IMG/VR virus record: IMGVR_UViG_3300023210_000016
Length of the DNA: 64,000 nt
Direction: 5' to 3' (one strand)
Source of the DNA: a virus
Lineage: Duplodnaviria; Heunggongvirae; Uroviricota; Caudoviricetes
The position numbers and the translations under genes were made by a program. Of the stretch, positions 3,410-58,554 are shown one piece after another; positions within the stretch are counted from its first letter, which is position 1; the number at the start of each line of letters is the position of its first letter. The notes under the pieces are model-generated. The model made no database searches. It saw nothing but the letters and a program-made list of their open reading frames with translations, and was not told where the DNA came from.

Positions 3410-4483
3410 ATGTCCTTTTTAAAGAGCGTTGCAGTTATCCTGATTAGTGTGTTTTTTGTTACCTCGACAGATGCCCACCATATCAATTTAGCTGATCTAG
3501 TGCAGACGGTGGAGAAGAGCATCGTAATTGTACAAGCTGTTCCGAACGAACAACCAAAACCAATAAAAAACAGCAACCCTTTTAGTCAATACGGACAACC
3601 CCCTGCCAAAAAACCCGATCCTGCACAAAAAGATCAACCAACTAAGTCCGGAACAGGGTTTGTGGTTGAAGGTGGAATCATTGTAACAAACGCTCATGTG
3701 GTTGAAGATTCCAAGTTTGCATACGTGTTATTCAAGAACCAAATGAAACGCCACAAAGTGATAATCAAACATCTCGATAGAAAAGCTGATATCGCCGTTC
3801 TCGTACCCGAAAATAATCAATTATTAGTCAGCATCGCCCCATTATCATTTAGTACTGACCTCTTACGATCAGGTCAGTCGGTGTTTGCTATCGGTCATCC
3901 ACTAGGATTCAAATACACGGTATCTACCGGCATTATCAGTAGCCCAAGTGTTCATTTGCCACAAGATACCAATCCGTTCCGCAGATTCGTACAAACCGAC
4001 ACAAGCATCAATCAAGGAAATTCTGGTGGCCCTTTGATGAACCATAGAGGCGAAGTTGTTGGCGTGAACACAATCATTATTTCACCCGGCAGAGTAGGAT
4101 CAATTGGATTGGGTTTCAGTCTAAGAGGTGATTATGTTCAGCGTGTGTTGAACCATTTTCGTAACTTTGGTGAGATCAAACGTCCGCGCATTGGCATTAA
4201 GTTAGGCTATAACCAAGAAAAAGAACGCCTATATGTTATGGAAATACAACCAAACTCACCTGCATCAAGTAGTGGGATATTGGTCGGAGACCTGATATTG
4301 AAGATCAATGCTGACGAGATAACCCTCATGGAACATATCTTCAATGCATTAGAACAACTGATGCCAAATGATGATATGAGAGTGCAAGTTAGCCGTGATG
4401 GTGTTATCACGACATATTCAGTGATCTTGGGTGATCTACGAGAATTTGAAAAGAAAGAAGCTCTAAAACTTAAAGTACGTTGA
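3410..4483 (+). CDS. HtrA/DegP-like trypsin-family serine protease with C-terminal PDZ domain, 357 aa; N-terminal signal peptide
   Basis: Catalytic motifs 'TNAHVV' (His), 'DIAVL' (Asp) and 'GNSGGPL' (Ser); hydrophobic N-terminus; RBS AGGAG 7 nt upstream. Confidence 0.85.
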   Translation: MSFLKSVAVILISVFFVTSTDAHHINLADLVQTVEKSIVIVQAVPNEQPKPIKNSNPFSQYGQPPAKKPDPAQKDQPTKSGTGFVVEGGIIVTNAHVVEDSKFAYVLFKNQMKRHKVIIKHLDRKADIAVLVPENNQLLVSIAPLSFSTDLLRSGQSVFAIGHPLGFKYTVSTGIISSPSVHLPQDTNPFRRFVQTDTSINQGNSGGPLMNHRGEVVGVNTIIISPGRVGSIGLGFSLRGDYVQRVLNHFRNFGEIKRPRIGIKLGYNQEKERLYVMEIQPNSPASSSGILVGDLILKINADEITLMEHIFNALEQLMPNDDMRVQVSRDGVITTYSVILGDLREFEKKEALKLKVR

Positions 4484-5136: not shown

Positions 5137-5466
5137 TTAGCCGAAAGCCACGCTCTCGCCACAACCACATGAGCTGGTGGAATTAGGATTCACCACCGTT
5201 AGCATTGAACCCATAATATCTGTTTTGTAATCAATTGTAGAACCGATTAAATACATGATTGCAATTACGTCAACTGCAAACACATAATCTGTGTCACGCA
5301 ATTCAATAATTTCCTCGTCTTTAAGTTCATCTTTCTTAATGACATCCCATTCGTATGAGAACCCAGCACAGCCACCACCACGAACACTTAATCTAACCGC
5401 ATCCATGTCATGGGTGCTGCATATTTCAATAAGATGATCTCTTGCGGAGTCTGTTAGTGTAATCAT
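5137..5466 (-). CDS. iscA: IscA/HesB-family Fe-S cluster insertion protein, 109 aa
   Basis: '[11 protein letters not shown]' and C-terminal '[12 protein letters not shown]' match the IscA/ErpA signature cysteines. Confidence 0.85.
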
Positions 5467-5684
5467 TTTTTATGACGGAATGTAATCCGACCTTTCGATA
5501 AATCGTATGGGGTCATTTCGACCGAGACGCTATCACCTACCACTACATTGATACGATGCATGCGCATCTTACCATTCAAGTGTGCTAGTATTTCGTGTTC
5601 GTTCTCTAACAACACGCGGAAGGTGGAATTCGGACATACCTCTAATATCTCACCTTCAAATTCAAGTAATTGCTCTTTCGCCAT
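5463..5684 (-). CDS. infA: Translation initiation factor IF-1, 73 aa
   Basis: Near full-length similarity to bacterial IF-1: 'MAKE...FRV.LEN.H...AH..GKMR......[17 protein letters not shown]'. Confidence 0.9.
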
Positions 5685-6604: not shown

Positions 6605-6633
6605 TTGACTTTATAACGACCATCATATATAAT
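6605..6633 (+). promoter_or_regulatory. sigma70 consensus promoter TTGACT-N17-TATAAT driving 6677..8218
   Basis: Read directly: ttgact(6605-6610)...tataat(6628-6633). Confidence 0.6.
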
Positions 6634-6676: not shown

Positions 6677-8218
6677 ATGTTAATAGATGCTACCGGTCAA
6701 AAAGTGATCAATTTACCAAGCATAATCATATCATTTTCGTCGTTTGAACAGAGCGGGGTTGACCTGATAATAATGCTCAATGGGGAAAAAATTATTGTCG
6801 AACAGTATTTTCTGCAAAACCCATTGCCTATCATTCAAGTCGATGGTGCAAATATATACCCCGTGGATACTATTGACAATCATGTCGGTACTGTGGTATA
6901 TGTTACAGGTGACGTAGTGGTAAAGACAGATGATATATCATGGCGTTTAGTGAAAGTAGGCGATAAGCTTTATCAGGATGAAGTGATTATCACCCCCGGC
7001 GATGGTATCGTGAAGATAGCGTTAGATCATGGTTCGTTTATCGAATTGAAACAAGGGCAAAGACTGGTACTGGATGAAGTTATCTTCGACCAAGAAATAC
7101 CACCGATGCCGGGAATGCAATTAGATGTGAGCCAATTCAGTATGCCAGATTTATACGGATTGCATGTATCGATTGATCCAATAATGAAATACATTGATCC
7201 AGATAACGACCATTATGATCCAGATAAGTATTATGAACTCAGACTACAAAGGGATGAAGAACGTGCATCAGATGGACCTGCCACTGAAGTGGTCGATGGC
7301 GAATTTCCACCAAAGTTTAGCTTCGTCTCTGAAGCCAGTGGAAATACCGGAATACTTACAACCAGAGATACCGCCACCGGACCTATTGGCAATTTCACAA
7401 GCATTGAGCTGGATTCGGGACAGGAATTGGCCACCCCAACTGGAGATGAAATTGGAACGACCGTTGGATCGGAGACAACGCAAACCGTCAACGATGTACC
7501 TGACACAAATCCAGTACCAATTCCAGAAGAGCCAGTAGATGATAGTACCGACACCGGATTGGCGGAACACACCGACGACGGATCAACTGGAACTGGAGTT
7601 TCCACGCCTGATCCAGATTGCAACGATGACGCTGGACCCGCAACTGATCCAACCCCTGACACAAGTCCAGTACCAGTTCCTACCCCCGAACCCACCGCAG
7701 TCGTAACTGTTTCAACTGTTACAGAAACATTTGTTACATCTTCTGAACCAACAATAACTACGGTTTGGATTCGTGACACAATCGCAGACGAACTGATCGA
7801 CAACAAACACCCCGATATTGACAACGGCGGCGAAGGTCACGATAAACATAGTGATCTTGTTCGGACAACGTTCAGTCATTTCGTGGATGAGTCAGTTATC
7901 GAAATCACCACGACGGTTGTAGAAACTACCACAACCACAACCGTGATAGGTGATCAGGCCCCGACTATTATTGTCGAGGGGCCAACGGTAATCAATGAGT
8001 CAGTGACTTCTGAAACTTCTGCCAGTTCTCGCACAGAGACAACAAATATCGAATTCATTGATGACCATGATAATGGCCACGGCAACGAAGATGATCATAA
8101 CGATAATTCTAATTCGGGCAAAGGCAAGGGTAAAAAAGATCATGACGAAGATGAGCAAGAAGGGTACACGTTGACGCCACCACATGATACTCCGCACGAT
8201 CCCGAGATCATTCAGTAA
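6677..8218 (+). CDS. Thr/Pro/Asp-rich low-complexity protein, 513 aa, with internal repeats (DTNPVPIPE/DTSPVPVPT); possible surface or structural protein
   Basis: Long ORF behind a consensus promoter; globular N-terminal ~140 aa then T/P/D/E-rich region. Confidence 0.55.
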   Translation: MLIDATGQKVINLPSIIISFSSFEQSGVDLIIMLNGEKIIVEQYFLQNPLPIIQVDGANIYPVDTIDNHVGTVVYVTGDVVVKTDDISWRLVKVGDKLYQDEVIITPGDGIVKIALDHGSFIELKQGQRLVLDEVIFDQEIPPMPGMQLDVSQFSMPDLYGLHVSIDPIMKYIDPDNDHYDPDKYYELRLQRDEERASDGPATEVVDGEFPPKFSFVSEASGNTGILTTRDTATGPIGNFTSIELDSGQELATPTGDEIGTTVGSETTQTVNDVPDTNPVPIPEEPVDDSTDTGLAEHTDDGSTGTGVSTPDPDCNDDAGPATDPTPDTSPVPVPTPEPTAVVTVSTVTETFVTSSEPTITTVWIRDTIADELIDNKHPDIDNGGEGHDKHSDLVRTTFSHFVDESVIEITTTVVETTTTTTVIGDQAPTIIVEGPTVINESVTSETSASSRTETTNIEFIDDHDNGHGNEDDHNDNSNSGKGKGKKDHDEDEQEGYTLTPPHDTPHDPEIIQ

Positions 8219-8219
8219 G

Positions 8220-8676
8220 TTATTGCGGCACGACCATCATGGTTAGTGTTCCAAAATATGAGCCAGCCGGTGCACTTGCGAGATCGCTCCCCTGTATGCG
8301 CACTTCTATTGTGGCCGTACCTGATCTGCAAAACGGCAATTTTCTACCCATCGCTTTTCCGGTAAGATTATGAATAGCAGTTCCTGTAGACAATTGCACT
8401 AAATTTCCTTGTCTGCTTTCTTTATACCAAACTTGAAAAGGTATATCGGCAGGTCCACTAGATACAACAAAGGCACCGGCAGCACCAGACCCTGTTACTG
8501 TTATACTATAAATTTTGTTGGTGGCGGCAACACAATGCACCGACTCACTGATTATTTCAGCAGCCCCCCAGCCATGTACCAAGATTGATATCGTCTATGT
8601 CTTGGATAATTGCATCTGCTGCGTATACAGGGAATGCATACAACATAAGAGCAAGTGCAAGAAATAGCTTTTTCAT
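8220..8676 (-). pseudogene. SCPU-domain (spore-coat-U/Csu-pilin-like) secreted protein split by a frameshift at a G6 (C6 on + strand) tract at 8564..8569
   Basis: 40-aa ORF from ATG 8676 encodes signal peptide 'MKKLFLALALMLYAFPVYAA' plus 'DIDDINLGTW' and stops just after the homopolymer. The TTG-start 120-aa ORF (8220..8582) continues in another frame with the SCPU C-terminus 'GSYFGTLTMMVVPQ'. Removing one G restores a ~152-aa protein collinear with the paralogue 8680..9213. Confidence 0.55.
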
Positions 8677-8679
8677 GGG

Positions 8680-9237
8680 TTATTCAGCGGCAACCAATAA
8701 TGTTAATGTTCCCGTAAAGGTGCCCACTGGTGCAGAGGCAAGGGAACTTTCGGTAACATCGATGCCAAGAGTAGCCGTTAATGCCGAACCACCATTACAG
8801 TTAGTGCTTGTAGCAGATGATGTTTGTCCCGCTAATGCTGAACCAGAAGTCAATGATGTTCCACTAGAAGAACCAGCAACATCATCCCACTTAACGGTGT
8901 AAGGAACCGTGTTAGTTCCGTCTGTCATTTCAAATGCACCGCCCGTTCCACTGCCACTAGCTGTGATAGAATAGCCGGTATTACTTGTCCAAATACAAAC
9001 ATCATCGGTTGATGATAGTGGGCCTGTTCCGGTCCATGTGCCGAAAGCAATATCGTCTATCGCTGTAATTCGAGCCAATGCTGGCACGGTAACGGAGATA
9101 GTACTAGTGCCTGATGATGTTGCGCCCACGTTTCCTTGGGATGCCGCAAATGCTTGAGCATTAATGATTGTTGCAATTGACCCTGCAACAAGGGCTGTTC
9201 TGATAAAAGTCATCGTAGTTCCTGTTATTCTTATCAT
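8680..9237 (-). CDS. SCPU-domain secreted protein, 185 aa in track; probable true start at Met9, 9213
   Basis: Signal peptide 'MTFIRTALVAGSIATIINAQAFAA'; N-terminal 'ITAIDDIAFGTW' and C-terminal 'PVGTFTGTLTLLVAAE' resemble the spore-coat-U/Csu pilin domain; RBS AGGAAC before the second Met. Confidence 0.6.
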   Translation of the reverse strand: MIRITGTTMTFIRTALVAGSIATIINAQAFAASQGNVGATSSGTSTISVTVPALARITAIDDIAFGTWTGTGPLSSTDDVCIWTSNTGYSITASGSGTGGAFEMTDGTNTVPYTVKWDDVAGSSSGTSLTSGSALAGQTSSATSTNCNGGSALTATLGIDVTESSLASAPVGTFTGTLTLLVAAE

Positions 9238-9245
9238 GAACTATT

Positions 9246-9263
9246 TATCTAAAATTTTAGATA
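9246..9263. promoter_or_regulatory. Perfect 18-bp palindrome TATCTAAAATTTTAGATA just upstream of the SCPU gene
   Basis: Read directly; sits ~-30 to -50 relative to the start codon. Confidence 0.5.
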
Positions 9264-9293
9264 AGATATAATAAGCTAGAACTACTCTAAAGG

Positions 9294-9372
9294 TACTAGG
9301 GGCCGGAATCGAACCGACTCGCCTTGCGGATGCCGTTATGAGCGGCAGGACTCCCCATTTGTCTTCCCTAGC
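9294..9372 (-). tRNA. tRNA, anticodon CAU (Met or Ile2-like), 79 nt, atypical 12-nt variable region and 3-bp D-stem; no encoded CCA
   Basis: Manual fold: acceptor GCTAGGG/CCCTAGT, anticodon stem TGCCG/CGGCA with loop CTCATAA, T-arm GTCGG-TTCGATT-CCGGC. Confidence 0.55.
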
Positions 9373-9543
9373 ATTAGTTAATCATCCTTCAATATGTACT
9401 TTTCAATACTCATGGCGAAGTATAACAAAGATGCGTATTGATCGTCTCTATACCGCTCACGTGGTCCGTCATCAGGCACATTATGCCCATAAAAAGTAAT
9501 GGCCTGTTCCATGATAGCAAGACGATCTGCTGGTGTTAAGTAC

Positions 9544-9972
9544 TTAGAATCTGCCACGTTTTTTCCAATACCTCAACCATTTAGGAAATGATTTCGCTGC
9601 CGGTGCCATATCTAGATTGTACTCGGCGCGTTTGATGCGTGTTTCTATTCGCTCCATAGCTTTTCCCAATGGTGATTTGTCGTACCGAAACTGTCGCGGT
9701 AGCTTGGGTACGGAAACAGTTTCTCCCGTGAATTCAGCCATGCTTTGATGACCTTTGGAAGAGTTACATGGAACACACGCGACAACAGTGTTGTCATCAC
9801 GATGGTAACGTCCAGTATCTTTCAATGGAATGATATGATCAACTGTTGCCGTTTTGTAATCAAGTTTGCACTCACAGTAGTAGCATTTAAACCTTTGCTC
9901 CCGAAGCTTCCGGTCCCGATTCAGGCGATAGAAAGCTTTTTCTGTGCGTGATCTGAGTTTAACGTGCCCCAT
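9544..9972 (-). CDS. HNH endonuclease, 142 aa
   Basis: 'CYYCECKLDYKTATVDHIIPLKDTGRYHRDDNTVVACVPCNSSKG' (C-x2-C...H...N...H/C-x2-C). Confidence 0.75.
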   Translation of the reverse strand: MGHVKLRSRTEKAFYRLNRDRKLREQRFKCYYCECKLDYKTATVDHIIPLKDTGRYHRDDNTVVACVPCNSSKGHQSMAEFTGETVSVPKLPRQFRYDKSPLGKAMERIETRIKRAEYNLDMAPAAKSFPKWLRYWKKRGRF

Positions 9973-12539: not shown

Positions 12540-14171
12540 TTACAACTGAATTTCTGACCAGTCTACAGAATACAAGAACAGCCCTGTGCCTGTCTCAATA
12601 ACTTGAATACTTATCGACAAGGTTTGTTGTGTAGTGTTATCGCCTTCTAAAATGAACTGCGCAATGTTAAATAATTCGTTGCTGACGTTGTCGGTTAATA
12701 CGTTATAATCAGAGACAGCACTAGCCGAACCAATTCTCGACCAGATTATCTCACCACCACTTACTGCGGTCGCCGTAGTATCCACTTCCACCGCTGAGTT
12801 TGTGGTATCGTGTGGGGCAAAAACTGCGCCAGTCAATACGGATGGGTCTCTGCGAATTCTAATAACATATTGGAAAGCTGCATTGTTGCCGATGCTAAGT
12901 CCAACAAGATTGCTGATAACAGAGTTTCTAATGCCCTGATATGTCGTAGCCGCTCTCAGACTCATAATTGGCTTTTCGCCATCTGTATCCGCGATGCTTT
13001 TTCTTGCAGCGACCACTGCGGTGTGACGTGTTGTGTTTCTAGAAATATTACCCAGAGCTTTTACGGTAGCACAAGCAAAACGCATTTGGCTATTGCCCGA
13101 TGCAATGCCAGTGTTAGTTACTTCCAATCTGATTGGCAATGTGCCTGTGCGCATGTAAACTTGTGTCAGGTTGTTAGCATTTTCAAACGTGTGGCCAACT
13201 CTCTTCTCGCCCCATTCAGTAATCATGCCCATTCGTACCTTACCAGCACCTAACCATTGATAATCAAACCACATGAGATTCATGTTTAATGGGTTCCATG
13301 TAAATGGTCGCGTTGAAGAACCGTCTAATTTATTATCTGAGAAATCTGCTTGCGCAACTCTTGTATCTACTGCCGAAGAACCGTCTGCTGCACTACTACG
13401 AATTACTGCGTACAGTGTTGTTCCATCTAGTTCAAAGAATATTCCATTGTCATCATCGAAATAACCCCAACGACGACGAACGTTTGCTTTGCCGACATCA
13501 CCCATGACAATAGTCATTTCGATCAAGTTACCTGTTCCGGGTTGATACGGATGATACAAATGTGATTGTCTTACCGCACTAGCACCAGAGCCGGTGCCGC
13601 CGGTATCCAATAAAACAGAAGATTCGTTTTGAAGATATGTAATAGAACCTGTTCCTGCAGTGACATCGTACCATGCTTCTGGGTGTTCGGTGTATGTGTG
13701 GCTGTGATCGGAAATTGTGTTTTGTTCTGCAGAAAGCAAATCACCAAACGGACTGAACAATGGCGTACCGTCTTTGAATGTTATCTTCTGCGCACCATCA
13801 GCATCTAGTCGCTGTCTGAATTCTGGATTGTCTGGGTCAGTTAATACCATCAATTGGTATTCAGCATCGATCTGACTCGTGGACAGTGGAACGTTTGCTA
13901 CGCCCTTAGTGACAGCAGATACCTGCAGGTTTTCGTCGTTTGTGAAGGTTCCCGTGACTGTTTTCAGATACAATTCACCATCCGTTCCGGGTGTAAACCC
14001 AGTAACATTGATGGCAGTAACCGTACCTGTTGCAGAAGAGGAAACGCCCGTAACGACATCGCCAATTGCGAAACCGCCGTTTGTTTCGTTATCAAACGGT
14101 ACTAACGATCTGGCAACGGACCCGATTTTCTTACCAGTACTATCTGGTGGGACTCTCACGAATGATGGCAT
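12540..14171 (-). CDS. Large structural protein, 543 aa (tail/baseplate)
   Basis: Long ORF in the structural block; G/T/S-rich. Confidence 0.5.
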   Translation of the reverse strand: MPSFVRVPPDSTGKKIGSVARSLVPFDNETNGGFAIGDVVTGVSSSATGTVTAINVTGFTPGTDGELYLKTVTGTFTNDENLQVSAVTKGVANVPLSTSQIDAEYQLMVLTDPDNPEFRQRLDADGAQKITFKDGTPLFSPFGDLLSAEQNTISDHSHTYTEHPEAWYDVTAGTGSITYLQNESSVLLDTGGTGSGASAVRQSHLYHPYQPGTGNLIEMTIVMGDVGKANVRRRWGYFDDDNGIFFELDGTTLYAVIRSSAADGSSAVDTRVAQADFSDNKLDGSSTRPFTWNPLNMNLMWFDYQWLGAGKVRMGMITEWGEKRVGHTFENANNLTQVYMRTGTLPIRLEVTNTGIASGNSQMRFACATVKALGNISRNTTRHTAVVAARKSIADTDGEKPIMSLRAATTYQGIRNSVISNLVGLSIGNNAAFQYVIRIRRDPSVLTGAVFAPHDTTNSAVEVDTTATAVSGGEIIWSRIGSASAVSDYNVLTDNVSNELFNIAQFILEGDNTTQQTLSISIQVIETGTGLFLYSVDWSEIQL

Positions 14172-19818: not shown

Positions 19819-21561
19819 TTATACAATCGGAGGAAAAGTGTCTGCTGGGCTATCCACATTCGGTGTTTTCAAAATATCCAATATTTTACGATTTAGAACA
19901 GGTTTTTCTTGCAATCCTTCTCTTAGTGGACCCAGATGTTTGTCGTATTTCTTCCAGAAATCCAATGCAGATCGATACAATGGCTTGCGGACTTGAAACA
20001 AACTGGCTGTCCAGACTGCTCGGTCGGTATTATAGTAGTTCTTTAACTCATCTTCCCAATCAAGGTCCAAGAAATCTAGAACCCGATGAACTTGGTTGTC
20101 AAAATCATCTACCATATCTTCATACTGCAATGACAGGATAGACTCGGGATATAATCGTTCCCAGTGTTCCATCAATGGCTCGTACACTTGGCGATAATAC
20201 TTCCCTACTTCATACAGATCGTATGTGTAATGCCATGTGTCTTCTGATGCCCAGACTTGTTGGAAATTAGAAAAACAACATGCCATTGGGTCACGCTTAC
20301 AATGAATGAATTTGGTGTTCGGCAACATCGACTTGATCAAACCAAGATAGTAATAATTGCTTGGTGTCTTGTCGATCATGTAAGTCTTTTCAGGCCACCG
20401 TTTGGCCAGCGAGTTATCGTATTGTTGTCCTAGTATTCTGAACCTATTTGGAGATACTTGGTTCATTGTATATGGGTGCGGCTGTGGGGGTTCAATGCCT
20501 TGCATGGCAATCTCGCCTTTTAGATCATTCAGAAAATCATTGATGTTGTTCAATTCTCCTTCAGAATGTACCTTTGTATGGGTTGCTAATGCCTGATCAA
20601 TCAGGGTTGTGCCTGATCGTGGCATGCCAATAATATACAACGGCATCGTTTGCTCGTCGCCATGAGGTGGTTGACGCTCTACGAATTCTGGGGTGAATAC
20701 TTCTTTGATGTTGAATTGATATTGCAGTACGTTCTCGAATTTATATCCGTTGTCTTTCATATCTTCGTGGATTTGCTTGTTACCAGCTTCCAGATATTCG
20801 AAGGCGTCATCGATCTCGTCAAACTGTTGATATATTTGTGATATAGCAATATTGATTCGCCCGAAATCGTAGTTCGATTGTGGTGGGCCAGACAACTTAC
20901 TCAACATATCATCAATGAATGCTTTTCCATCTTCTAGGGTATCAAACTTTTTGAATTGGATGAGTGATCGCCACGTTGGGATATGGTCCGGTCGAAATTC
21001 GAGACCTTTTTCCAGATCAAAGATTCCTTGCTCGACGTTACCTGCACTAACATGACAAATTCCTCTGTTGTGCCACGAAAAGAACAATTCGGGATCACGT
21101 TCTAGTGCGAAATCGAATGCTTTGATTGCCTGATCGAGTTGGTTCAATGCTTTGAATGCACCGCCAAGTTCATTGAAATACACAGCGTTGGTATCATCAA
21201 TACGAATTGCATTCAGGAATTGCTCAACCGCTAGGTCCATGTGTCCAGAACTAAAGAACATGAAACCAAGATCGTAATAATATTCGGGATTGTCGGGGTC
21301 GATCTCAACTGCGCCCTTCATTGCCAGTGCTGCGAGTTTGAACTCACCTGCGTGAAAGGCTATCTTGGAAATACCCTTGAATGCAAGAGGTTGTTGAAGG
21401 TCACGTTGTAATACCTCTTTGAGCAACTTCTCTGCTTCTTCGTATTCTTTGGTTTCTACTAGTTCTAACCCGTGTTTGAGTTTTCGTTCGGTTATTACTT
21501 TGTATTCTTTCTTGGCTTGGCGTTCTTGATCTTTCTCTTTAGATTTCTTTGATTTTGCCAT
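19819..21561 (-). CDS. TPR-repeat protein fused to a sulfotransferase domain, 580 aa
   Basis: N-terminal TPR-like repeats (YYYDLGFMFF...AIK); C-terminal 'GMPRSGTTL' 5'-PSB sulfotransferase motif. Confidence 0.6.
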   Translation of the reverse strand: MAKSKKSKEKDQERQAKKEYKVITERKLKHGLELVETKEYEEAEKLLKEVLQRDLQQPLAFKGISKIAFHAGEFKLAALAMKGAVEIDPDNPEYYYDLGFMFFSSGHMDLAVEQFLNAIRIDDTNAVYFNELGGAFKALNQLDQAIKAFDFALERDPELFFSWHNRGICHVSAGNVEQGIFDLEKGLEFRPDHIPTWRSLIQFKKFDTLEDGKAFIDDMLSKLSGPPQSNYDFGRINIAISQIYQQFDEIDDAFEYLEAGNKQIHEDMKDNGYKFENVLQYQFNIKEVFTPEFVERQPPHGDEQTMPLYIIGMPRSGTTLIDQALATHTKVHSEGELNNINDFLNDLKGEIAMQGIEPPQPHPYTMNQVSPNRFRILGQQYDNSLAKRWPEKTYMIDKTPSNYYYLGLIKSMLPNTKFIHCKRDPMACCFSNFQQVWASEDTWHYTYDLYEVGKYYRQVYEPLMEHWERLYPESILSLQYEDMVDDFDNQVHRVLDFLDLDWEDELKNYYNTDRAVWTASLFQVRKPLYRSALDFWKKYDKHLGPLREGLQEKPVLNRKILDILKTPNVDSPADTFPPIV

Positions 21562-34775: not shown

Positions 34776-35879
34776 CTAATTCTTTTTCCATATCCAAGTT
34801 GGTTCAGCAAACGATCCAACTTTGTCTTTCAGCGCACCTGAATTCGGTCGTTTTCTCATTTCGTAACCAATACAACCAACGTATGTCGCCCCTGTTTTTT
34901 GTTGTATTTTGTCATTCATTCTATCACATATCTGATTGATAGTGTGATTCGAGTACACATCACTGATATTGAGAATCAAATGGCCGGAAGTTTCTAATCG
35001 ATCCCACATGTTATCAATGGTGGCAAACATGAATTTATTCATCCAGTCATCAAACTTTCTGAACTCTTTAAACGATTGATCCTCTTCTTGGGTATATCGT
35101 TCAATGTTGTAATACGGCGGCGATGTGAAAATGGTATCATACGTATTTCCAGTGTCGGGAAACTCTTGGGCTTTACCCACATTCATGTCGATAGTCTTGT
35201 TTCCGCCGTACATCTTAATTTGATCTTTGTATCCTTGTACTAAGGTTTGGTTTGGATCGATTCCGGTATATGATGTCGCATTAGATGCACAAAATCCCGC
35301 AAGTCGATCTCCCCATCCAGAACTGAAATCCAAAACATTAACTGATTCAAACTTATTATACACCGCCTTTGCAGCACTAGGTCTAAACTGACTCGCGATA
35401 TACTTTCTCAACGCAATACAAGACCTAAGTGTTTTTGTGTCAACTTTTGTAACCTTCAGCGACCAGAGAGCATTAAGCATCGTCATTCTAAATTTCTTGA
35501 TATACCAAGATCGGTATGGGCTAGGAGCATTGATGCTGTCACATTTCCATCTGTTCTCTTGGTGAAAATAATCTGATGCTTTGTTGCCAACACTGGACGA
35601 TTTAATGATGGTGTCTGTGCTGTCGTATTTGTAATCATACCTACTGAAAAATGGAGTATCTATGAACAGGCTTTGCTCGTCCAAATCTTTCAGACTTTGA
35701 AAAGCATCCATAGCTTCTTCTTTGGTAATGGTTCGCATGGGCATAGGCAATTGATCAATTGCGTCTGATATCATTTCCTTAATGTATTCTTTGTCGTGAT
35801 TTTGGTTAAGCTCCACCCACTGTTCGGGGGTTATGCTGATTTCGCTGTTTTGTATAATATTCATTCTTAAGTGTATCAC
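34776..35879 (-). CDS. SAM-dependent DNA methyltransferase (N4C/N6A type), 367 aa
   Basis: Motif I 'DFSSGWGDR' and motif IV 'FTSPPYYN'. Confidence 0.6.
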   Translation of the reverse strand: MIHLRMNIIQNSEISITPEQWVELNQNHDKEYIKEMISDAIDQLPMPMRTITKEEAMDAFQSLKDLDEQSLFIDTPFFSRYDYKYDSTDTIIKSSSVGNKASDYFHQENRWKCDSINAPSPYRSWYIKKFRMTMLNALWSLKVTKVDTKTLRSCIALRKYIASQFRPSAAKAVYNKFESVNVLDFSSGWGDRLAGFCASNATSYTGIDPNQTLVQGYKDQIKMYGGNKTIDMNVGKAQEFPDTGNTYDTIFTSPPYYNIERYTQEEDQSFKEFRKFDDWMNKFMFATIDNMWDRLETSGHLILNISDVYSNHTINQICDRMNDKIQQKTGATYVGCIGYEMRKRPNSGALKDKVGSFAEPTWIWKKN

Positions 35880-56189: not shown

Positions 56190-56789
56190 TTAGGTTATAC
56201 GGAATTTCTCATCATGGTTTTTCTTACCCAGCATTAACTTGATAGTGACTTCGCTATCCGGCAGAAACCCTTTTTTGATGTACTTTTTGATACGCCGCTC
56301 GACATTATCCCATCCATGATCGGCGATGGACTTATTCACGTCGATGAAATGTAATGTACCTGTTTCCAAATCGGCAATTGCTTCCGGAGTATGAATAACC
56401 TGCTTCCCATCGGTGGCGAATTGACATACCGTGATATCGAAACTATTGATACAATCAATTGCGGTTTCCTCTGAACGGAAGCCAACACAATTCAATACGT
56501 ATCCAATATAATTCAACCAGCACAGTGCGCCGTGGCCATAATCATTGCCTTGTCGTTGCTGATGGTTGTCGGTTGCGCCGCAATCATACAGGGTTTGCTT
56601 GAATTCTTGGTATTGCGCTTTGTTGGCGAAGTAGATGTCCACATCATTCGCATTCAAGAAGTTACCATCCTGATGGAAGTTCAATGCGGCACCGCCAGCG
56701 ATCCATGGCCCGTTGTTCAGGTCCATCAATGGGAGCAAGTTGGTGATGTTGTATGGCTTATGTGATAGATTCATCATCGTCTTCATCAT
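56190..56789 (-). CDS. Pol-beta-superfamily nucleotidyltransferase; head-domain motifs resemble tRNA CCA-adding/poly(A) polymerase, 199 aa
   Basis: 'IAGGAALNFHQDGNFLNANDVDIYF' (GG...DxD) and 'INSFDITVCQFA' (cf. RDFTINA). Confidence 0.4.
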   Translation of the reverse strand: MMKTMMNLSHKPYNITNLLPLMDLNNGPWIAGGAALNFHQDGNFLNANDVDIYFANKAQYQEFKQTLYDCGATDNHQQRQGNDYGHGALCWLNYIGYVLNCVGFRSEETAIDCINSFDITVCQFATDGKQVIHTPEAIADLETGTLHFIDVNKSIADHGWDNVERRIKKYIKKGFLPDSEVTIKLMLGKKNHDEKFRIT

Positions 56790-57792: not shown

Positions 57793-58554
57793 TTATAGCT
57801 CAAAGGTCTGGCCTTTCACAACCCAACCACGGAACCCATCCTGAATACAATCAGCTTTGTCGCCGGGTTGATAATGATATAGCCACATTTTGGCTTTGGT
57901 TTCTTCGTCCAGTGTCACCAGTTCATTGTAGTGAGCATGTACGCCAGATGGGAACGGAGAGGTTTCACTGTCCTGAAAAATTATGTCAGACATGTTGTAG
58001 AAATCTCTGATCTGGTTCGGATTGAATTGGGTGTCGGTTGTAATGAAATACGAAACTTCATTCACGGTGAACATCAATCCATACGAAGGTACGATGTCAA
58101 ACCCATCCATATAATGAACAACTTGAACCAACGTAAATGACACGCCTTCCCACAGGAATGATCCGTTCTTCTCGATAGCTTCGACAACAAAGTAATCATC
58201 CAACGATGTGATTTTGGTTTGAATTGATCCTGCGCCACCAGACAAGGTATGAGTCCATAGATCGGGTGCAAGATTTTCATTCACAAACAACGTAGGGCGC
58301 TTTAGCGTAGGATTGAAATACGTACTGAACATCAAGTATTCCATTCCGCCAACATGATCGGCGTGTTGGTGACTGACGTACACAGCATCAATGGTATCCA
58401 GTTCGATCCCCTGATCTCGCAGTGAGAACCTGATATCAGTTCCACAATCAATCAACAGACGTTTGCCGTTGTCCGCTTCGATGATCATATTGGATTGATA
58501 GTTATTTGGCTCTAGCGTAAAGGCCGAACCTGCGCCTAAGAATATGAGTTTCAT
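57793..58554 (-). CDS. Metallo-beta-lactamase-fold hydrolase (RNase Z/BN-like), 253 aa
   Basis: 'LIFLGAGSAF...LLIDCGTDIRF...VYVSHQHADHVGG' (HxHxDH). Confidence 0.7.
   Translation of the reverse strand: MKLIFLGAGSAFTLEPNNYQSNMIIEADNGKRLLIDCGTDIRFSLRDQGIELDTIDAVYVSHQHADHVGGMEYLMFSTYFNPTLKRPTLFVNENLAPDLWTHTLSGGAGSIQTKITSLDDYFVVEAIEKNGSFLWEGVSFTLVQVVHYMDGFDIVPSYGLMFTVNEVSYFITTDTQFNPNQIRDFYNMSDIIFQDSETSPFPSGVHAHYNELVTLDEETKAKMWLYHYQPGDKADCIQDGFRGWVVKGQTFEL

Follow-up and report, generated by a model that had tools for sequence, protein, structure and literature searches.

The stretch of viral DNA analysed here (64,000 nucleotides; Caudoviricetes; IMG/VR record IMGVR_UViG_3300023210_000016), referred to below as the window, carries two adjacent genes on its minus strand, A and B, whose products have the predicted fold of subunits of chaperone-usher (CU) pili. 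Alignment shows the two proteins to be paralogues, as an earlier note made from the sequence had proposed. Gene A is intact, while gene B is split by a frameshift at a run of six G residues (G6). The coordinates of these genes and of the surrounding features are collected in Table 1.

Gene A has two possible starts. The 185-residue open reading frame (ORF) described in the earlier note exists; the downstream ATG at 9213, which gives a protein of 177 residues, is favoured by the gene callers applied to other assemblies and by a Shine-Dalgarno-like AGGA 7 nt upstream. The mature protein is unchanged whichever start, 9213 or 9237, is used. The N-termini of A and B are both of the Sec type, with a basic n-region, a hydrophobic core and an AxA-type site, as judged by eye and from the alignment. 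In A, a 23-residue signal is followed by ASQGNVGATSSGTSTISVTVP, which aligns with a segment of about 22 residues, ATQGxxGxTSxGSxxIxxxVP, conserved after the signal peptide of the A-type homologues. All 17 invariant columns of the family are kept, including a pair of cysteines that is also present in B. The AlphaFold2 model of A (predicted local distance difference test, pLDDT, 84.8) is disordered over the signal peptide and over the N-terminal segment that comes after it.

Gene B begins with MKKLFLALALMLYAFPVYAADAIIQDIDDINLGTWLGGC (MKKLF...GTWLGGC) and reaches a stop after 39 codons. The reading frame breaks exactly at the G6 run, and removal of one G gives a single ORF of 151 residues, in line with the earlier note; the motif blocks quoted there are likewise present, as AIDDIAFGTW and GTLTLLVAAE in A and as DIDDINLGTW and GTLTMMVVPQ in B. 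The repaired protein has a 19-residue signal and no donor-strand segment, and its mature form is a single domain of 132 residues. The ATQGxxG segment is lacking in every B-type protein; those of the phage and of the bacteria begin straight at the (I/L)xxLDDxxLGTW strand. The lesion in B is a single one: the conserved residues of the family are all kept on either side of the break, the 114 codons downstream hold no further stop, and across the junction the repaired protein matches its bacterial homologues in length. For repaired B the pLDDT of the model is 89.1, with values of 93-95 over the junction.

Table 1. Features of the pilin locus and its surroundings (positions in the window; aa, amino acids).
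Feature	Position	Strand	Description
Gene A	8680..9213	-	177-aa chaperone-usher pilin of the major type, as predicted (P0001)
Gene A, longer ORF	8680..9237	-	upstream ATG at 9237 gives 185 aa
Gene A signal peptide	about 9145..9213	-	
Gene A putative donor-strand segment	about 9079..9144	-	ASQGNVGATSSGTSTISVTVPA
A-B spacer	8677..8679	-	3 nt, between A stop (TAA) and B ATG
Gene B	8220..8676	-	putative tip-type pilin paralogue without donor strand, split by +1 frameshift
Gene B 5' piece	8557..8676	-	39 aa: signal peptide plus 20 aa
Gene B 3' piece	+1 frame, to stop at 8220	-	114 codons, ending GTLTMMVVPQ-stop
G6 homopolymer	8564..8569	-	C6 on + strand; frame of gene B breaks here, G5 would be in frame
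Convergent 513-aa gene	6677..8218	+	stop 1 nt from gene B stop
Promoter-like site	6605..6633		near-consensus sigma-70 TTGACT-17-TATAAT; precedes 513-aa gene
Perfect AT-rich palindrome, 20 bp	9245..9264		TTATCTAAAATTTTAGATAA; between tRNA-Met and gene A
Predicted three-helix RNA hairpin	9215..9290	-	outer helix pairs GUAGUUCU with AGGAACUAC; the latter holds the gene A ribosome-binding site
tRNA-Met (CAT), 81 nt	9292..9372	-	ARAGORN; directly upstream of gene A, same strand

The assignment of A and B as secreted proteins of the CU pilin type is supported by their fold and by the operon context of their bacterial homologues. The predicted structures show a Csu/CupE-like pilin fold, with sequence identities of 11-21% in the structural alignments. 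The fold is similar to that of the archaic (sigma) pilin CsuA/B of Acinetobacter baumannii (PDB 7zl4; PMC9452303) and of CupE1 of Pseudomonas aeruginosa (PDB 8cio; PMC10104325), with no membership at the level of sequence. Scanned as single sequences, A and repaired B match nothing in Pfam, NCBIfam or PHROGs. The SCPU (spore-coat-U/Csu-pilin-like) model PF05229, which the earlier note had put forward as a check, gives no match at E<=1 for A or B and none for 52 A-type homologues; three of 37 B-type homologues match weakly (best E 7.3e-4), against 3.8e-22 for the control CsuA/B. P0132 scores E 0.23 and 12.2 bits with this model (cut-off 22.4). Single B-type members touch the Fimbrial_CS1 model (E 0.059) and DUF4402, and neither A nor B matches Fimbrial_CS1 (PF04449). 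A profile of the 52 homologues found only chance matches among the PDB sequences (E>=0.17), and hhalign comparison of the A family with CsuA/B gave a probability of 0.3%, that is, no relationship. The earlier description of A and B as SCPU-type pilins thus holds for the pilin fold and the CU context, and fails for membership of PF05229 and for the type of usher.

The homologues (n=296) come mostly from Sphingomonadales and other Alphaproteobacteria, and none is annotated beyond 'hypothetical'. Among 80 bacterial loci, a B-type gene is present in 78, an usher in 74 and a chaperone in 71, in the order A-B-usher-chaperone. The usher scores above the Pfam gathering thresholds for TcfC (57.1 bits), CooC_C (37.7) and SPOR, and the chaperone above that for PapD_N (32.4). 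In the lineage nearest the phage the usher is one protein of about 1270 residues. Since the fold and the operon context are clear while sequence profiles fail, the family is a genuine, undescribed CU pilus system, in which the pilins are related to SCPU proteins no more than remotely and the usher is of the alternate (TcfC/CooC) type. Strains that carry the operon include Sphingomonas sediminicola DSM 18106 (L042) and Novosphingobium sp. B 225 (L017).

Some further features of the bacterial loci were observed. Unusually for this class of protein, the usher (9296..13129 on contig L088, 9289..13032 on L001) has SPOR domains, which bind peptidoglycan, at its C-terminus (70 bits); on L001 it is split into ORFs of 258 and 983 residues. 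The chaperone gene of L088 lies at 13138..13827. Upstream of the operon on L001 (6510..7565) lies a gene for a 351-residue protein with N-terminal LGEILVxxG-type repeats and a C-terminal domain that resembles an A-type pilin; tblastn matches it to gene A of the phage at 3e-6. In a metagenome-assembled genome of Aliikangiella (L038, 37% GC), two A-type pilin genes and one of the B type form an orphan cluster (7986..9677) that is surrounded by housekeeping genes (metK, ahcY) and does not lie in a prophage; neither an usher nor a chaperone gene occurs within 8 kb of it. Subunit genes detached from their assembly genes therefore occur in bacteria as well.

The bacterial operon differs from the known CU systems in several respects. 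It has two subunit genes, in contrast to the A/B-A-B-C-D-E arrangement of Csu, and no two-domain tip protein like CsuE; the usher, which belongs to the TcfC/CooC type and carries SPOR domains, is a further difference from Csu. The alternate (alpha, class 5) fimbriae, namely CS1 (CooA/CooC), CFA/I (CfaB/CfaE/CfaC), CS17 and Tcf, are set apart by the unmatched Fimbrial_CS1 model; in CFA/I the chaperone gene comes first, whereas here it comes last and is sometimes inverted. The two-domain adhesins CfaE and CooD also contrast with the proposed tip subunit B, which is a single domain. By the logic of donor-strand exchange, A would be the polymerising shaft subunit. B could accept a strand and would be unable to donate one, which would confine it to the distal tip, as the first subunit to be assembled.

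The window is part of a large, virulent-looking phage. The 543-residue product of 12540..14171 matches a virion-structural PHROG (1.4e-74) and shows about 33% identity to structural proteins of T4-like cyanophages; the window also holds three tRNA genes and several homing endonucleases of the HNH, GIY-YIG and NUMOD types, and the same sequence is present on contigs of up to about 103 kb. The pair has no counterpart in the phage data searched. With A and B as queries, tblastn found nothing at E<=1 in 50,697 phage genomes, and a megablast of 6 kb against phages matched a tRNA alone. No relative was seen in IMG/VR (2.9 million contigs; alignment and single-protein scans), and no phage with a CU pilin of this family was found in INPHARED or PHROGs. 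Among the viral structures of BFVD, Foldseek brought up no convincing relative (best E 4.6e-3, TM score 0.42), and no description of phage-encoded CU pilins or fimbriae was found in the literature. The remark in the earlier note that such proteins are unexpected in a phage is borne out: orphan CU subunits on a phage are a new setting for a known kind of protein, without precedent in the databases searched. The assembly genes are also missing from the roughly 84 kb of phage sequence covered. No PapD or usher Pfam match was present among the called genes (precomputed; about 84 kb of the 93.5-kb contig), and tblastn with the bacterial usher and chaperone found nothing in the window or in the 10-kb extension at each end.

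The same bacterial contigs, L001 and L088, hold the best matches both of A (66% and 60% identity) and of B (39-41%), with the gene order unchanged, which indicates that A and B were captured together. Since then the pair seems to have been kept and not merely carried. The GC content of A and B is 46-47% (GC3 0.35-0.45), compared with 43.5% for the phage and 63-65% for the closest bacterial genes; the spacer between A and B is 3 nt in the phage and about 130 nt in the bacterial operons (L001, L088). The phage-like composition and the compacted spacer, together with the invariant columns and the normal divergence of B, argue for retention. The short spacer also suggests that the two genes may be translationally coupled.

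The frameshift in B is real and consists of a one-base insertion, G5 to G6. The window shares its G6 with a further four contigs (L004-L007; from ENA with MEGAHIT-style names, JGI and Logan). At least three genotypes are represented: relative to the window, L004/L091 show single-nucleotide polymorphisms (SNPs) and an A6/A7 indel in the neighbouring 513-residue gene, L007 has two SNPs, and L091 is distinguished from L092 by clustered SNPs and a 1-bp indel in a gene for a He_PIG protein. Because the tract is identical in different assemblies, from independent short-read pipelines, and in different genotypes, the sequencing indel considered in the earlier note is ruled out; tract length is compared here between assemblies, which give the consensus only. 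The 39- and 120-residue fragments of B are both present in a collection of about 15 billion proteins (JGI, Logan, ENA), in which exact look-up found neither the G5 nor the G8 product; the sole match of repaired B at 100% identity is the 120-residue fragment. A scan of JGI metagenomes found no relative and hence no further independent copy of the tract. A long-standing pseudogene is ruled out by the single lesion and by the normal divergence of B, whose bit-score ratio to A is 0.47, within the 0.29-0.73 seen between bacteria. The simplest reading is a recent G5 to G6 insertion that became fixed in the sampled population; it is much more likely than phase variation, which ranks above programmed frameshifting and, last, an assembly artefact.

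The second option in the earlier note was a slipped-strand switch for the tip subunit, with G5 as the ON and G6 as the OFF state. The break does fall exactly in one of just three G/C runs of six or more in the 64 kb (2168, 8564 and 15868); loss of one G would give a protein of homologue length at the junction, and the downstream frame is wholly preserved. As in the homopolymer contingency loci of bacterial fimbrial and adhesin genes, the run lies in the 5' part of the gene, where one base more or less switches the frame. However, contingency tracts are typically longer than six bases. All assemblies, from ENA/MEGAHIT, JGI and Logan and from at least three genotypes, agree on G6 with no variant in length, and only the products of the broken gene occur in the protein collection. 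With no evidence of an ON allele phase variation is unsupported, and we consider it quite unlikely. Programmed +1 ribosomal frameshifting on CUG-GGG-GGC, which would yield some full-length B, is less probable still. The tRNA-Gly on GGG could re-pair perfectly after the shift (G-GGG-G), the UGA of the 0 frame follows two codons on and leaves a short overlap window, and the rest of the gene is intact. Yet no hungry or stop codon stands in the A site beside the slippery codon, in contrast to the prfB-like +1 frameshift, where a slow or stop codon takes the place of the GGC found here; this GGC would be read by the phage's own tRNA-Gly(GCC), and the bacterial B genes are uninterrupted, so that the frameshift is not conserved.

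It is proposed that A and B are Sec-exported pilins that would fold and assemble only with the help of the host chaperone and usher, and would thereby remodel the fibres of the host, with A active and B off; on balance we lean towards this reading. The two subunit genes of an alphaproteobacterial CU operon (A, B, usher, chaperone) would have been captured together by a large phage and kept. Both products would be exported by the Sec pathway into the periplasm, where the PapD-like chaperone and the usher of the infected cell may accept them, A serving as the shaft subunit with its donor strand and B, assembled first, taking the distal tip. By mixing into the host fibres or replacing them, the phage pilin could change adhesion, aggregation or the exposure of receptors. 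In the sequenced population full-length expression would come from A alone, and B would be off, save for any rare +1 slippage on G-GGG-G. We infer the need for the host chaperone and usher because the phage has neither in the roughly 84 kb examined, and the biological purpose is proposed in the same spirit.

Several observations weigh against this proposal. The closest bacterial homologues come from genomes of about 60% GC, compared with 43.5% for the phage. B is frameshifted in every assembly, and in known CU systems such a subunit often initiates assembly. A differs from the bacterial proteins by T95E, L96M, Y166F and P176A, at positions that are 96-100% conserved among 51 bacterial homologues, and these four substitutions could have altered or abolished polymerisation. 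No sigma-70-like promoter was found upstream of gene A in a promoter scan. Finally, two other adhesin-like accessory genes of the phage, described next, show frameshift polymorphisms, which fits relaxed selection on such cargo.

The first of them is the convergent gene downstream of B. The N-terminal 150 or so residues of its 513-residue product resemble the BapA prefix and the LapA retention module (its first half) of giant adhesins exported by type 1 secretion; the match to the NCBIfam model retention_LapA (E 5.9e-10, 39.5 bits) lies below the cut-off of 50, and that to BapA_N is below the cut-off of its own model. The rest of the protein is a threonine- and proline-rich orphan sequence, with no RTX repeats evident. 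Among 1.84 billion representative proteins it has 28 relatives, all matching over residues ~2-176 and all retention-module proteins. A terminator scan found nothing between this gene and gene B. At 8127..8132 an A6 run in the window is A7 in the ENA assembly (L004/L091), which truncates the protein to 489 residues. The second is the He_PIG gene just outside the start of the window, where the JGI assembly has a 1-bp deletion that does not lie in a homopolymer (697 residues versus 269+432). The adhesin-like accessory genes of this phage thus seem prone to accumulate frameshifts. About 4 kb from the pilin genes, at 3410..4483 (+), lies a gene for a 357-residue HtrA/DegP-like serine protease (Trypsin_2 and PDZ domains) with a signal-peptide-like N-terminus. 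In bacteria, DegP degrades pilus subunits that lack a chaperone; a link of the phage protease to the pilins is speculative. Taken together, the locus looks like a small island of accessory genes directed at the envelope and at adhesion, which is an impression and not a demonstrated unit.

Other genes of the phage were recorded in passing. The window encodes IF-1 (5463..5684) and an IscA-like iron-sulphur protein (5137..5466), both on the minus strand (5137..5684), and the same contig outside the window (L093, L091) encodes S21, a 141-residue protein with an RF-1 domain, ClpS, HSP20, NifU-like proteins and MazG, all of them translation or proteostasis genes. Precomputed Pfam matches point to two counter-defence candidates on the minus strand, an anti-Pycsar protein Apyc1 with a metallo-beta-lactamase fold (57793..58554) and a Gad2-like protein (56190..56789). 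A 580-residue protein with TPR and sulfotransferase matches, also precomputed, is encoded at 19819..21561 (-), beside large structural-looking genes.

Of the alternatives for the pair itself, two stand level, and each appears unlikely. In one, the subunits would enter the host CU pathway as dominant negatives, acting as chain terminators or jamming the usher or chaperone, so that host pili are shut down or capped; further phages would be kept from adsorbing, or progeny from sticking to debris. This shares its structural and contextual evidence with the remodelling of host fibres proposed above. The changes in A at highly conserved positions, among them P176A at the C-terminal proline and Y166F in the last strand, speak in its favour, as does the supply of subunits without an initiator or tip while B is off. 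On the other hand, the substitutions are conservative except for T95E and P176A, and the complete donor strand and acceptor motifs expected of an ordinary polymerising subunit are still present in A. CU pili are also not known as receptors for the phage in question, and the literature search brought up hardly any case in which such pili serve as phage receptors.

In the other, the pair would be a functionless fragment of a host operon, picked up by chance, with B already a pseudogene and A to follow. It would account for the frameshift of B in all assemblies and the lack of an intact copy among 15 billion proteins, for the polymorphisms in the 513-residue (A6/A7) and He_PIG genes, and for the lack of such genes in the other phages searched. 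It is hard to reconcile with the intact A gene and its full set of invariant residues, with a composition that fits the phage and not the closest donors, with the spacer reduced to 3 nt, and with a B gene that has one lesion, no more stops in 114 codons, its conserved residues and a normal divergence.

A more elaborate scheme, which we regard as slightly more doubtful than these two, is that the phage exports a shaft pilin and a tip subunit gated by the G tract or by +1 slippage through the host CU pathway. It would thereby specify or cap fibres and so change attachment or exclude competitors, as part of an 'adhesion-control island' with the LapA-like retention-module protein and the HtrA-like protease. 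A place on the virion for A and B, with the 513-residue protein as a further adhesin, had been suggested in the earlier note and is very improbable: the block of structural-looking genes (with the 543-residue virion protein) is about 1.5 kb away and many virions are decorated by immunoglobulin (Ig)-like domains, but both proteins have Sec signals, the invariant cysteines suggest a periplasmic disulfide, the incomplete Ig fold needs a chaperone or a donor strand, no relative is found in PHROGs, BFVD or phage genomes, and between the pair and the block lie a tRNA gene and a gene for a homing endonuclease.

Upstream of gene A lies a palindrome, which the earlier note had reported as a perfect one of 18 bp in the promoter region. 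The core TATCTAAAATTTTAGATA at 9246..9263 is exact, and the full palindrome extends to 20 bp, the longest perfect one in the window, 32 nt upstream of the likely start of A. The second longest, GCAATTGATCAATTGC, has 16 bp and lies at 35747..35762. Simulated windows (first-order Markov; n=300) contain one of at least 20 bp in 6.7% of cases and one of at least 18 bp in 24%, so that a palindrome of this length is only mildly unexpected by chance. The predicted RNA fold of 9205..9295 places the palindrome at its apex; the minimum free energy is -18.3 kcal/mol (z -2.56), equalled by 3 of 200 shuffles. The element may be a repressor operator for A, as the earlier note proposed. It may instead form the apex of an RNA hairpin with a part in processing the tRNA-mRNA transcript or in masking the ribosome-binding site of A, or chance may account for it; we put this account forward tentatively and with low confidence. 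Its length and intergenic position close to A are suggestive, as is the predicted fold, which encloses it in two more helices, with the AGGA of gene A paired in the outer one. Against a role, no second copy occurs in the window with up to 3 mismatches, the promoter scan found no sigma-70-like promoter that overlaps it, and Rfam has no match at E<=1 in 8000..9700. That last search also failed to return the tRNA-Met, which suggests an atypical tRNA, perhaps with a long variable region. The tRNA is 87% identical to an annotated tRNA-Met of Ochrobactrum phage vB_OspM_OC.

Phages are known to carry morons and auxiliary genes that alter structures of the host surface, for example those for O-antigen-modifying or pilus-inhibiting proteins in superinfection exclusion. 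The A/B pair is like them in being accessory, in a variable region beside a tRNA gene and homing endonucleases, and in encoding exported products outside the virion and replication modules. It differs in that the known examples are enzymes or inhibitors, whereas A and B would be structural subunits of a host CU fibre. The frameshift in B is real but less remarkable, and most simply a recently fixed inactivating insertion. The pair points to a widespread, uncharacterised family of alphaproteobacterial pili, with two subunits for which there is no Pfam model and an usher that bears SPOR domains, and, as 'orphan subunits' that occur in nature, A and B could be used to probe this family. Among bacterial adhesins CU pili form a major class, and the searches brought up no account of a phage with genes for their subunits. 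Should the phage pilins indeed be taken into the host pathway, they would represent a novel means by which a virus rewrites its host's surface, with consequences for attachment, biofilm formation and competition between phages in aquatic bacteria.

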